Source: an archaeon (GTDB lineage Archaea > Iainarchaeota > Iainarchaeia > Iainarchaeales > 1-14-0-10-31-34). From it: a stretch of DNA of 32,000 bases. A program made the translations under genes and the position numbers. Below, piece after piece: positions 1,007 to 31,786 of the stretch (position 1 is the stretch's first letter; the number at the start of each line of letters is the position of its first letter). The notes beneath the pieces are model-generated. The model searched no databases and was not told the origin of the DNA. It was given only the letters and a program-made list of their open reading frames with translations. The DNA lies in the NCBI GenBank assembly GCA_024277355.1, contig JAJRVL010000009.1, forward strand, positions 1 to 32,000, read 5' to 3'.

Positions 1007-1057
1007 GTTTTTGTTTTAACAAAAACGTTTTTAATTAAACTTTTTTTAAAAAAGTTT
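1007..1057. repeat. Composite AT-rich palindromic element (B-type hairpin + TTTTTAATTAAAC + A-type hairpin) ending 3 nt before tRNA-Ser
   Basis: gtttttgttttaacaaaaac (1007-1026) is followed by gtttttaattaaac, then aaactttttttaaaaaagttt (1037-1057). A further B-type hairpin, tttttgctttgcaaaaa, lies at about 929-945. TTAATTAAA falls at about -30 to -22 relative to tRNA +1, so it may double as a TATA box. Confidence 0.7.
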
Positions 1058-1060
1058 ACT

Positions 1061-6550: not shown

Positions 6551-6605
6551 GTTTTTGCTTTAGCAAAAACCGTTTTTTGATTAAACTTTTTTTTGAAAAA
6601 AGTTT
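6551..6605. repeat. Composite palindromic element (B + A hairpins) ending 3 nt before tRNA-Ser(GGA)
   Basis: gtttttgctttagcaaaaac (6551-6570), then cgttttttgatt, then aaacttttttttgaaaaaagttt (6583-6605). The architecture and the ...aaaagtttact|gcagagg junction match those at 1007-1060. Confidence 0.7.
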
Positions 6606-6692: not shown

Positions 6693-6747
6693 TTCCGAGC
6701 TACTCCTCGGAAGGGAGCGTGCTATCTTACGATAGCACTGCATAAAC
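6693..6747 (+). other. Conserved double-hairpin 3' trailer (H1 ttccgag-ctactc-ctcggaa; H2 tgctatc-ttac-gatagca; then CTGCATAAAC)
   Basis: It starts directly after the tRNA discriminator. Its H2 sequence and the downstream CTGC.ATAAAC are shared with the trailers at 8779-8843, 21713-21766 (-) and 28373-28429 (-). Confidence 0.6.
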
Positions 6748-6815
6748 TTTTAAGAAAAGTTGTATCAAAAAATGGCTAACGCCAAAAACAACTTTTAAGA
6801 AATTTAATCAAAAAG
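6744..6815. repeat. Two inverted-orientation A-type palindromic units separated by the hairpin tggctaacgcca
   Basis: aaacttttaagaaaagttgtatcaaaaaa (6744-6772) and the degenerate aacaacttttaagaaatttaatcaaaaag (about 6787-6815). Orientation is opposite to the unit upstream of the tRNA. Confidence 0.55.
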
Positions 6816-8636: not shown

Positions 8637-8719
8637 GCAGGGTTAGCCAAGCGGTCAACGGCGGTAGGTTGAGGGCCTATGACTTAGTGTCTACGGGGGT
8701 TCGAATCCTCCACTCTGCA
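8637..8719 (+). tRNA. tRNA-Leu(GAG), class II
   Basis: Acceptor gcagggt/actctgc (one G-U), D stem gcc/ggc, anticodon stem gtagg/cctat with loop ttGAGgg, variable stem gac/gtc, T arm ggggg-ttcgaat-cctcc, discriminator A. Confidence 0.9.
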
Positions 8720-8720
8720 A

Positions 8721-8750
8721 TTTTTGATCAAACTTTTTTTTAAAAAGTTT
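8721..8750. repeat. A-type palindromic unit between tRNA-Leu and a duplicated tRNA 3' fragment
   Basis: tttttgatcaaacttttttttaaaaagttt. Confidence 0.7.
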
Positions 8751-8778
8751 GCGGGCAGTTTGAATCCTCCACTCTGCA
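8751..8778 (+). pseudogene. Relic copy of the tRNA-Leu 3' end (T loop + acceptor 3' strand)
   Basis: gcgggcagtttgaatcctccactctgca versus the genuine acgggggttcgaatcctccactctgca (8693-8719). The last 17 nt are identical, and the relic can no longer form a T stem. Confidence 0.75.
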
Positions 8779-12151: not shown

Positions 12152-12339
12152 GGGCCTGTAGCCTAGTGGATAAGGCATCAGCCTTCTAAACTTTTTTCGC
12201 AAAAAAGTTTAATCAAAAAAACCTTTTTCAAAAAAAGGTTTATCAAAAACGTTTTTGCTTTGCAAAAACTATTGATTTTTTTTGGTTTGGAAATAGTTAA
12301 GATAGCTGAGGATCGTGGGTTCGAATCCTCCCAGGCCCG
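12152..12339 (+). tRNA. tRNA-Arg(UCU) interrupted by a 115-nt intron at the canonical 37/38 position
   Basis: Exon 1 is gggcctg-ta-gcct-agtggata-aggc-a-tcagc-cttcta. Exon 2 is a-gctga-ggatc-gtggg-ttcgaat-cctcc-caggccc-g. Acceptor and anticodon stems are perfect; there is one T-stem mismatch (U50/C64). Confidence 0.85.
12189..12303 (+). other. BHB intron of tRNA-Arg, built almost entirely from three palindromic repeat units
   Basis: BHB: the central helix joins nt 33-35 (ttc) to intron aag (12299-12301). The 3-nt bulges are t-a-a (12187-12189) and a-t-a (12302-12304). The outer helix pairs acttttttc (12190-12198) with ggaaatagt (12289-12297). The body reads aaacttttttcgcaaaaaagttt|aatcaaaaa|aacctttttcaaaaaaaggttt|atcaaaaac|gtttttgctttgcaaaaac. 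Confidence 0.75.
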
Positions 12340-12405
12340 TAAACTTTTAAGAAAATAAGATTTTTGATTGAGTTTGCATTTTGACAGCATGACTGAATGA
12401 AATGA

Positions 12406-12440
12406 AGTCGTGCATCGTTGTGTCGCGGGCGAAACCGGGA
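12406..12440 (+). other. Conserved RNA-flank motif AGTCGTGCATCGT + hairpin with GCGAAA loop
   Basis: agtcgtgcatcgttgtg-tcgcgg-gcgaaa-ccggga here. On the minus strand of the rRNA spacer, agtcgtgcatcgtgct-taaacg-gcgaaa-cgttta occurs at 31862-31895, and the same sequence with a preceding A-T instead of A-G occurs at 31465-31498. The stems differ but keep their pairing. Confidence 0.5.
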
Positions 12441-14285: not shown

Positions 14286-14303
14286 TTTGATTCCTTTTTT
14301 TTT

Positions 14304-14335
14304 GTTTTTGATAAACCTTTTTTTGAAAAAGGTTT
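14304..14335. repeat. A-type palindromic unit in the ATPase-permease junction
   Basis: gtttttgataaacctttttttgaaaaaggttt. It is flanked by tgattcct+T-run on both sides (14288-14295 and 14339-14346). Confidence 0.65.
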
Positions 14336-15301
14336 TTATGATTCCTCTTTTTGCACGTTTTTTATTCCTTCAGCTTTTTTTCCAGTTAAATTCAAAAAAA
14401 CATTTTCTAAGTCTGGTTCTTTTATTGTGGTTTTTGTTACTGCAAAATTATTTGCTTTAACTATTAAACTTATTTTAGATAAAGCAGTTATTTCATTTTT
14501 TCCAATAAAAGAAAAATTTACTATTTGTTTATTAATGTAAACTTTTCCAAAAGCCTTATTTAATTCTTCTTCAAGTTTTTTTGTTGCAGGTTTATCTAAT
14601 TCAAAAACAAAATTTTTTTCTCCGCCAAACTTGTCAATTAATTTTCCAGGAGAATCACATACAAAAATTTTTCCTTCTAAAATTAATGCAATTCTATTGC
14701 ATAGTTCTTGTGCTTCATCCATATAATGAGTTGTAATAAACAAAGTTTTTCCTTTGCTTTTTAATTCCCTTAATTTTTTCCATAATAATCTTCTCATGTC
14801 AGGATCTAATCCTACAGTTGGTTCATCTAAAAAAATAAATGAAGGATTATAAATCAAAGAACAAGCAATATTCAGCATTCTTCTGTATCCTCCTGATAAA
14901 TTTTCTGCTTTTCTTTTTCTAAAATAACTTAAGTTAAGCCATTCCAATAAAAAATCAGTTCTTTGCTTTAATTCTTTTCCTTTTATGCCGTATAATGAAC
15001 CAAAAAAAACAAGGTTTTCTTCAACAGAAAAAAAACGATAAAATGATTCTTCTTGCGGAATAAAAGCAACATGTTTCCTTAATTCCATTTCTTTTGGCTT
15101 GAATTTCCCAAAAAATTTTGCTTTTCCTGCATCCTGTAAAGCTAATCCATTTAATATTTTCATTAAAGTGCTTTTGCCGGCTCCATTCGGTCCTAACAAA
15201 CCAAATATTTCACTTTTATTTACTTCAAGGTTTACATCCCTTAAAACTTTCTGTTTTCCGTAAGCTTTAGAAATATTCTCTGTTTTCAATGCTATTGACA
15301 T
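14336..15301 (-). CDS. ABC transporter ATP-binding protein
   Basis: Walker A GPNGAGKST, signature LSGGYRRML, Walker B FIFLDEPTVGLD, H-loop TTHYMDE. The track start at 15343 is TTG; the ATG at 15301 (MSIALKTENISKAYG) fits the family N-terminus. Confidence 0.9.
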   Translation of the reverse strand: MSIALKTENISKAYGKQKVLRDVNLEVNKSEIFGLLGPNGAGKSTLMKILNGLALQDAGKAKFFGKFKPKEMELRKHVAFIPQEESFYRFFSVEENLVFFGSLYGIKGKELKQRTDFLLEWLNLSYFRKRKAENLSGGYRRMLNIACSLIYNPSFIFLDEPTVGLDPDMRRLLWKKLRELKSKGKTLFITTHYMDEAQELCNRIALILEGKIFVCDSPGKLIDKFGGEKNFVFELDKPATKKLEEELNKAFGKVYINKQIVNFSFIGKNEITALSKISLIVKANNFAVTKTTIKEPDLENVFLNLTGKKAEGIKNVQKEES

Positions 15302-18928: not shown

Positions 18929-18988
18929 CAAACTTTTTCAGAAAAAGTTTGAACAAAAACGGTTTTCGCTATGCGAAAACTATTGAAA
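18929..18988. repeat. Composite palindromic element (A + B hairpins) between the relic and the functional alaS 3' end
   Basis: caaactttttcagaaaaagtttg, then aacaaaaac, then ggttttcgctatgcgaaaact, then attgaaa. Confidence 0.7.
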
Positions 18989-21766: not shown

Positions 21767-22062
21767 GGGTTGTGGAGAGTAAGCCGCTTTTTGTTTTACC
21801 AGCATTCACCTTTGCGTCTTAAAGACTTGCACTCCCAGAACATATTTCATTTCTGTTTAACCTAAAGCACGTTTCATCCTTTTTCCAGAAAACTCACTTA
21901 AAGGTCATCATAATTCTGGAATGGTTTCGTTTCTGCTCTTCAGGAAACCCTCTAAGGTTTGTTTTTGATGAAACTTTTTTTAAAAGTTTCTAGGAATGAG
22001 TGAGCGGACTTTCCTCAGCTCCATTTCGAAAAATGGTACCGTCAGCTGGTCTTCCACTACCC
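21767..22062 (-). ncRNA. rnpB: RNase P RNA
   Basis: The minus strand has CR-I GAGGAAAGTCCG (complement of 22005-22016) and a CR-V-like AAAAAGCGGCTTAC (complement of about 21779-21792). P1 pairs GGGTAGTGGAAG (22062-22051) with CTCTCCACAACCC (21779-21767). P3-like hairpin ccattt-ttcg-aaatgg; P5 CTCAC/GTGAG; internal ACAGAAA. A TTTAAAAA TATA-like box lies about 23-30 nt upstream. Confidence 0.75.
21956..21990. repeat. A-type palindromic unit embedded in the RNase P RNA specificity-domain region
   Basis: The plus strand reads ggtttgtttttgatgaaactttttttaaaagtttc. On the RNA strand it follows CR-I/P5 by about 12 nt. The near-repeat CATTCCTAG / CATTCCAG on the RNA strand brackets it plus 45 nt. Confidence 0.6.
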
Positions 22063-31704: not shown

Positions 31705-31786
31705 TTTTTTGATACAACTTTTTCTAAAAGTTGTTTTTGATCAAACTTTTTTTTGTTTTTGATAAACCTTTTTTCTAAAAAGGTTT
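31705..31786. repeat. Array of three A-type palindromic units abutting the 3' end of tRNA-Ala
   Basis: ttttttgatacaactttttctaaaagttg | tttttgatcaaactttttttt (left arm only) | gtttttgataaaccttttttctaaaaaggttt. Confidence 0.7.

Follow-up and report, generated by a model that had tools for sequence, protein, structure and literature searches.

An array of genome-dispersed hairpin units in the intron of an archaeal tRNA-Arg(UCU) gene

A tRNA-Arg(UCU) gene whose intron carries an array of short palindromic units lies at positions 12152–12339 on the forward strand of a 32,000-nt stretch of archaeal DNA (contig JAJRVL010000009.1 of assembly GCA_024277355.1, from a DPANN archaeon of the Iainarchaeota, order Iainarchaeales; the whole stretch is referred to here as the window). 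The window is contig C7 of the source genome, G000, which measures 1.13 Mb, has 28% GC and is 96% complete; the comparison set comprised nine genomes of the family and 11 order-level relatives from other families. When introns were allowed, ARAGORN called a tRNA-Arg(tct) over 12152–12339 with a 115-nt intron starting from tRNA position 38, and without the intron search it failed to call the gene. The tRNA model of Rfam covers the same interval end to end with a score of 46.5 bits (threshold 29). After removal of the intron, the joined exons form a standard cloverleaf and are colinear, with no gaps, with the intronless tRNA-Arg(UCU) of order-level relatives; because of this ungapped alignment, the limits of the intron were set at 12189–12303. 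The 115-nt intron at the canonical 37/38 site, which the original prediction had read from the letters of this stretch, is thus borne out by ARAGORN, Rfam and the ortholog alignment. The parts of the gene, including the strands of the bulge-helix-bulge (BHB) and the hairpin units of the intron, are as follows.

12152–12188, forward strand: 5′ exon, tRNA positions 1–37, with the anticodon TCT at 12185–12187 (ARAGORN -i, Rfam, orthologs)
12183–12186, forward strand: 5′ strand of the central BHB helix, CTTC (C32–C35), pairing with 12298–12301
12187–12219, forward strand: A-type unit 1, an 11-bp perfect hairpin (12187–12197/12201–12211, loop CGC) with a AATCAAAAA tail (nhmmer, E = 3.4e-5)
12189–12303, forward strand: 115-nt intron at the canonical 37/38 site (ARAGORN, ortholog alignment, BHB register)
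12219–12249, forward strand: A-type unit 2, a 10-bp perfect hairpin (12219–12228/12232–12241) with a TATCAAAAA tail (nhmmer, E = 5.6e-7)
12251–12275, forward strand: B-type hairpin (12251–12258/12262–12269, loop TTT) followed by TATTGA (hairpin scan)
12276–12297, forward strand: 3′ closing segment, a T8 run and then GGTTTGGAAATAGT, with 12288–12297 as the 3′ strand of the outer BHB helix (RNAfold, register check)
12298–12301, forward strand: 3′ strand of the central BHB helix, TAAG, with the 3′ bulge next to it at 12302–12304
12304–12339, forward strand: 3′ exon, tRNA positions 38–73 (ARAGORN, orthologs)

The gene is almost certainly functional, as judged from sequence. Neither ARAGORN nor Rfam found a second tRNA-Arg(UCU) in the 96% complete genome, and AGA, a codon read by the UCU anticodon only, makes up 80.5% of the 7,926 arginine codons counted over long open reading frames (ORFs). 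Exon identity is 96–99% across six genomes of the genus, G000 among them; neighboring protein-coding DNA is 72–76% identical between G000 and its relative G004. The genome encodes a single splicing endonuclease, EndA, of 171 aa (PF01974, 95 bits), colinear with the homotetrameric (α4) EndA of M. jannaschii (1a79), as well as an RtcB in an intact 480-aa frame (608 bits). We judge the gene to be a working one because it is the sole UCU gene found in a genome whose arginine codons are mostly AGA, because its exons are conserved and because both EndA and RtcB are intact; splicing of its precursor is what we infer from these same observations. A thymine at 12316 produces a U50·C64 mismatch in the T stem at a base that is G in the other five genus genomes, and it may be either a real variant or an assembly error.

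We checked the register of the BHB by pairing the exon ends with the intron. In the 37/38 register the anticodon stem forms all five of its pairs, the two bulges are each 3 nt long (12187–12189 and 12302–12304), the outer helix (12190–12199/12288–12297) forms nine of ten pairs and the central helix forms three of four, with a C35·U mismatch adjoining the 5′ bulge; no BHB was found in the alternative 38/39 register. This agrees with the proposed motif of two 3-nt bulges, a central helix of 3–4 bp and an outer helix with one mismatch. The intron end TTAAGAT, and with it the TAAG strand and its C35·U defect, recurs in G004 and G005; a central helix of three out of four pairs occurs in six of approximately 12 introns in G000, i.e. 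in about half, and the splicing enzyme of this organism presumably copes with it. In the minimum free energy (MFE) fold of the anticodon arm plus intron (RNAfold), unit 1 pairs with the T8 run and the purine-rich 3′ segment in a long closing helix, inside which unit 2 and the B hairpin form separate hairpins, and the same fold was obtained for G000, G004 and G005. Changes in the 3′ strand of the outer helix among these three species are mostly between A and G opposite U, which keeps the pairing, although only three sequences are compared. The closing helix is predicted to form in vivo.

The interior of the intron consists of two A-type units and one B-type unit. A profile of the A-unit, built with nhmmer from 23 tailed hairpins of G000, matches at 12188–12221 and 12218–12251, both on the sense (forward) strand, and a word made of arm plus tail occurs nine times in the window compared with 0.6 expected, a count of nine that was reached in none of 100 shuffles. 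The first two bases of unit 1 are the exon bases U36 and A37, and its 5′ arm (12190–12199) doubles as the outer BHB strand. The B hairpin (12251–12269) is a true repeat that is found mostly right behind an A-unit, forming a two-hairpin A+B cassette, here with unit 2, that recurs in G000 at C2:59697–59751 and in the window at 18930–18980. It had been proposed that two A units and one B unit each carry a tail; the A-A-B body and the A tails (ATCAAAAA) stand, whereas the B hairpin lacks its own NATCAAAAA tail, TATTGA and then the T8 run (12276–12283) coming next instead. The strands of the profile matches also confirm that the intron units are oriented as are the copies downstream of tRNA-Ser(GGA) and tRNA-Ala.

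Four T-runs interrupt the intron, namely T6 at 12192–12197, T5 at 12224–12228, T5 at 12252–12256 and T8 at 12276–12283, the last being the longest in any intron. Oligo-T stretches of 5–6 residues are able to terminate archaeal RNA polymerase in vitro (PMC2253867), and the T6–T8 runs had accordingly been feared to act as termination signals inside an essential tRNA. In the sense strands of our ORF proxy set, runs of T≥6 occur at 2.3 per kb and runs of T≥8 at 0.27 per kb, and the 23S rRNA of G000 contains four runs of T≥5, one of which is a T6; because short T-runs are this frequent in coding sense strands and in 23S rRNA, we conclude that alone they are not efficient terminators in this organism, which leaves the concern a weak one. 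The sense orientation of the intron units means fewer T-runs in the transcript, one per unit versus two.

The most informative comparison is that among orthologs, which had been suggested as a check and which returned a shared 37/38 site with differing intron bodies. The gene was found in eight of the nine family genomes, and in all eight it is interrupted at 37/38, by introns of 83–216 nt. The G004 intron (113 nt) has the same A-A-B layout and is 86% identical to that of G000. The G005 intron (143 nt) contains an extra 27-nt A-unit between CAAAAA repeats, an allele also present in metagenome contig L172, and this extra unit would fit insertion or slippage alike. The G003 intron (131 nt) starts with unit 1 and continues with quite different modules, and other hairpin families occupy the introns of G001 (138 nt), G002 (83 nt), G008 (102 nt) and G006 (216 nt). 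Nine of the 11 order-level relatives from other families have an intronless gene; the other two carry introns of 17 and 72 nt, both at the 37/38 site. Every intron retains the 3′ strand that base-pairs with the anticodon loop, as GAAG, GAGG, GGGG or TAAG plus 2 nt, and the intron end GGAGGAA is common to G008 and to archaeon GW2011_AR10 (G023), the member of another family that has the 17-nt intron.

Turnover is also seen within a species and between isoacceptors. Searches of public runs listed no RNA run for this sequence, and a single run, of contig data, that contains the region. On a contig from this run, a strain variant shows 98% identity to G000 over 289 nt upstream and a matching 3′ exon, with 82 other bases in place of 12189–12298 and a different trailer; a search with a unique upstream 35-mer did not recover this variant from JGI metagenomes. 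The first 32 intron nucleotides are identical in the tRNA-Arg(UCU) and tRNA-Arg(CCU) of G000, the exons of which are only about two thirds identical, and CGA is a loop variant common to both Arg introns of G004. G001 has UCU and CCU introns that are 83% identical throughout their length, versus approximately 68% for the exons. The UCU intron of G003 is of the type found in the CCU gene of G000 (76% identical), and its CCU intron opens, by inspection, with the GC-hairpin module of the G002 UCU intron (54% identical overall). The anticodon arms of the two tRNAs differ by one base, on the 5′ side. From these sequences, introns or intron parts appear to pass between the tRNA-Arg(UCU) and tRNA-Arg(CCU) paralogs. 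A CCU-type intron on L171 (Ga0210057_1131091) and that on L004 (G003) differ in their GC hairpin, GTGCGAG/CTCGCAC versus GTACGGG/CCCGTAC, and because these are two compensatory double changes the stem is likely under selection. A third isoacceptor, tRNA-Arg(GCG), has in G003 (L190, C5:49125–49354) a minimal 37-nt intron that consists of one A-unit plus approximately 9 nt of complementarity to the anticodon loop; the same tRNA of G000 has an 83-nt GC-hairpin intron instead.

With copies counted at E ≤ 0.1, G000 contains 58 A-units. Nine lie in eight tRNA introns, where 0.07 would be expected from the whole genome and 0.6 from non-ORF DNA (P = 2e-8); another 22 are found no more than 150 nt from a tRNA gene and one is inside the RNase P RNA. 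Their orientation is polar: intron copies are sense in nine of nine cases and downstream copies in ten of 11, and ten of 11 upstream copies are antisense. Seven more intron A-units in four relatives are all sense, as is every copy in the Arg orthologs. Units that adjoin a tRNA end or a 5′ splice site have their hairpin on the tRNA side and their tail pointing away, such that upstream copies read TTTTTGAT-hairpin-tRNA and downstream copies read tRNA-hairpin-ATCAAAAA, often 0–3 nt from the mature end; in introns the RNA strand uniformly has the hairpin first and the A-rich tail second. The window holds the following examples beside tRNA genes, and an intergenic A-unit at 14303–14336 is kept at the orthologous site of G004.

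1026–1060, reverse strand: polar A-unit
6570–6605, reverse strand: polar A-unit
6745–6773, forward strand: polar A-unit
8718–8753, reverse strand: polar A-unit
12340–12370, forward strand: degenerate A-like unit directly after the tRNA-Arg(UCU) 3′ end, starting with the TAAACTTTT word as the intron does
31705–31785, reverse strand: polar A-units

When a 23-base pattern of the unit was run against a collection of species-representative genomes, it was found in at least 117 stretches, at least 109 of them archaeal and eight bacterial, the latter being about what chance would give by our own estimate. The archaeal carriers include methanogens, ANME-1, Altiarchaeota, Woese-, Aenigm-, Micr-, Iain-, Nano- and Undinarchaeota, and Thaumarchaeota. 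A polar terminator of protein genes is a role that the units may or may not have; the bias in orientation to protein genes across archaea is weak (88 gene ends versus 59 gene starts next to units). We considered the unit as the operator of one conserved gene and rejected this idea, as the proteins neighboring 117 archaeal copies form no recurrent family. The pattern was also seen in 14 contigs of the viral collection IMG/VR, several of them in giant-virus bins and some as tandem pairs.

Taken together, these observations make it probable that the locus is a working tRNA-Arg(UCU) gene with an old, cis-spliced 37/38 intron that has been filled by dispersed hairpin modules. We favor an old, colonized intron because one 37/38 site is shared by introns with differing bodies and because GGAGGAA is common to G008 and G023. 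The starting point would have been a short canonical BHB intron, probably like the 17-nt intron of archaeon GW2011_AR10, which would later have been filled and refilled with hairpin modules dispersed in the genome. Constraint would bear only on the parts needed for cutting, i.e. the 3′ strand complementary to the anticodon loop, the two 3-nt bulges and the closing helix, in which unit 1 would contribute its 5′ arm and the purine-rich stretch immediately upstream of the 3′ splice site the opposite strand. Unit 2 and the B hairpin would hang off this helix and leave with the intron when the α4-type EndA cuts and RtcB joins the exons. The body would turn over quickly, perhaps by three routes: single units gained or lost between tail repeats, introns or their parts swapped with tRNA-Arg(CCU), the anticodon arm of which is near-identical, and replacement of the entire body between strains. 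These routes by which the modules move are presumptive, and the units themselves may be selfish, functional or both.

Several points weigh against this account. The U50·C64 mismatch is found in G000 alone, and the C·U mismatch stands in the central BHB helix right next to the 5′ bulge, although α4 endonucleases have been described as strict for the BHB (PMC4090602). The fold constrained to the BHB lies 8 kcal/mol above the MFE, in which the register is shifted and bulge-free; we gave this gap no weight because G008, which has a perfect central helix, is penalized as well (11 kcal/mol). Unit 1 can also fold locally into its own perfect hairpin, an alternative to the closing helix in which U36 and A37 are sequestered. 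Splicing, like passage of the polymerase through the T6 and T8 runs, is a prediction from sequence. The intron copies are partly kin by descent or exchange, so that fewer independent events stand behind the orientation count than its numbers suggest, and no mobilizing enzyme was found in G000 when Y1 and TnpB were searched.

A different origin for the intron is conceivable but improbable, namely that a hairpin unit inserted into an intronless anticodon loop and that the 3′ strand of the BHB was acquired then or soon after. Such an event would explain why the first unit lies 0–5 nt past the 5′ splice site in nearly every intron with A-units, just as units abut the 5′ and 3′ ends of tRNAs; the minimal G003 tRNA-Arg(GCG) intron resembles the expected product, and 9 of the 11 relatives from other families are intronless at tRNA-Arg(UCU). 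However, eight family genomes have unrelated bodies at one shared site, that same site holds a repeat-free intron in two relatives from other families, the GGAGGAA 3′ end is shared by G008 and G023, and no clean pair of filled and empty anticodon loops with a target duplication was found. The original prediction had offered colonization of an existing intron or tolerated insertion into the loop as alternatives; the ortholog series favors colonization, and direct insertion may apply only to the original gain of the intron, as the present array needs none. We also think it unlikely, though slightly less so, that the units are functional signals kept by selection at the edges of stable-RNA genes, whether bidirectional oligo-T terminators, insulators, or hairpins for processing or protein binding. 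Their strict polarity speaks for such a role, as do the hairpin directly after the discriminator base at nearly every tRNA, the covariation of stems with varying loops, the 86% identity of the G000 and G004 introns versus 72–76% in neighboring genes, the unit kept at 14303–14336, and the occurrence of the word in at least 109 archaeal stretches of many phyla versus eight bacterial ones. No particular module can be required, however, since unrelated modules replace the body in G002, G008, G006 and the near-identical strain; the orientation bias to protein genes is weak with no recurrent neighbor across archaea, and a terminator within an essential tRNA would do harm.

Two further readings deny that the gene is a conventional intron-bearing one. 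That it is a pseudogene, disrupted by the repeats and yielding no tRNA, is very improbable: the C·U and U50·C64 mismatches, the T6 and T8 runs and an Rfam score below that of intronless tRNAs would fit it, but AGA would then be left with no other UCU gene, the same architecture and TAAG mismatch are kept in three species with exons 96–99% identical, and half of the introns of G000 share the three-of-four central helix. The check proposed for a disrupted copy, a search for another intact tRNA-Arg(UCU), therefore turned out in favor of a working gene. Less credible still, if by a narrow margin, is an adjacent split gene, in which the 5′ half would end at the T-runs, the 3′ half would have its own start and the two would be joined in trans through the helix of unit 1 and the 3′ segment. 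The 5′ exon is indeed followed by a trailer-like sense unit with the TAAACTTTT word, as after the tRNA 3′ end, TTGAT and a T-run lie approximately 21–30 nt before the 3′ exon, upstream antisense units put TTTTTGAT about as far ahead of tRNA 5′ ends, and T5–T6 terminates the archaeal polymerase in vitro (PMC2253867). On the other hand, nhmmer placed no antisense unit at the 3′ end of the intron and no recognizable promoter was detected there, T≥6 runs abound in coding sense strands and are found in 23S rRNA as well, and the halves are only 115 nt apart with a normal cis BHB that can be drawn between them.

The preferred account, an old intron filled by hairpin modules, gives the locus traits of BHB introns, of transposed introns and of REP-like repeats. 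As in canonical BHB introns (PMC4090602), the intron is at 37/38 with two 3-nt bulges and flanking helices, and EndA and RtcB are encoded; unlike them, it consists of 115 nt of dispersed repeats, has a three-pair central helix with a C·U, and belongs to a genome in which approximately 15 of 41 tRNA genes are interrupted. For the Thermoproteales, transposed tRNA introns with similar introns in different isoacceptors have been described (Fujishima et al. 2010, as presented in PMC4090602). Those introns likewise combine near-identical intron sequence with much less similar exons, pointing to movement or exchange at the DNA level, whereas ours occupy canonical positions only, are served by an α4 rather than an α2β2 enzyme, contain 30-nt modules that live outside tRNA genes too, and are shared as whole introns mainly between Arg paralogs. 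REP/REPIN sequences with their RAYT and the palindromic elements of Rickettsia (PMC3116915, PMC2817692, PMC3733652) are also short palindromes with an asymmetric tag at one end, present in tens of dispersed copies that are mostly intergenic, sometimes tandem or composite and occasionally inside genes; the A-unit, in contrast, is an AT-rich archaeal element whose copies cluster at tRNA genes and in their introns, in a genome that has no Y1 or RAYT-type gene. The split tRNAs of N. equitans, as outlined in PMC4090602, resemble the locus in their 37/38 break and in complementary flanks that form a BHB-like structure, whereas at this locus the two halves lie together on a single strand, separated by 115 nt.

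An origin of the A-unit in REP/RAYT or IS200/IS605 elements, which its layout of TTGAT plus hairpin had suggested, is unsupported, as no such transposase was found in G000 and the IS200 ends of relatives are unrelated. In G000 we found no Y1 transposase (no PF01797 match) and no TnpB above the cut-off. IS200-type Y1 genes are present in three of the nine family genomes, G005, G006 (five copies) and G008; two copies of the IS200 element of G006 define its ends, which are GC-rich hairpins that do not resemble the A-unit, and the Y1 genes of G008 and G005 have no A-unit beside them.

Spread of introns in archaea is well known only from the Thermoproteales; in the library of papers that we searched, none was found on archaeal tRNA introns built from dispersed palindromes. 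The orthologs described here form a series from a repeat-free intron of 17 nt through a single unit and a three-module array to 216 nt, and this series, together with isoacceptor exchange and strain replacement, makes growth by accretion of hairpin modules directly testable. A broader notion, which we regard as doubtful, is that the 30-nt hairpin-plus-ATCAAAA module is an archaea-wide element, conserved in sequence, that settles precisely at RNA processing boundaries (5′ and 3′ ends of tRNAs and 5′ splice sites) and serves as raw material for the birth and growth of BHB introns; the G003 tRNA-Arg(GCG) intron, a single unit with a few bases complementary to the anticodon loop, is already complete. 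If true, tRNA introns would still be gained today by this route, under the action of some factor that archaea have in common.

The number of introns in G000 is itself noteworthy. Approximately 15 of the 41 tRNA genes called carry introns of 21–149 nt, a load that is high for an organism with an α4 enzyme, given that fewer than 10% of tRNA genes are intron-bearing in organisms with α4 or α2 enzymes (PMC4090602). Among the calls checked there were no non-canonical introns, all being in the anticodon loop. The combination of a single α4-type EndA with a high load and imperfect central helices calls into question whether enzyme type and intron load are coupled as is usually assumed. One ARAGORN call, a "tRNA-Gly(ccc)" with an intron at 35/36 (C2:239804–239966), is better read as a tRNA-Trp(CCA) with a 37/38 intron that contains two A-units; no other tRNA-Trp gene was called in G000.

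Further observations concern other features of the window and the assembly. The A-unit within the RNase P RNA is a full sense unit at 21960–21988 on the reverse strand, inside an Rfam match at 21768–22061 (111.7 bits). A family of GC-rich trailers shows, by eye, the same polarity as the A-units. Downstream of tRNA-Arg, at 12384–12440, lies an antisense GC-rich double-hairpin element of the type that flanks tRNAs, with no tRNA after it. Finally, tRNA-Phe genes with identical flanks occur at C9:111126–111201, at the end of that contig, and at C11:106–181, at the start of another, and the two contigs probably overlap or adjoin.

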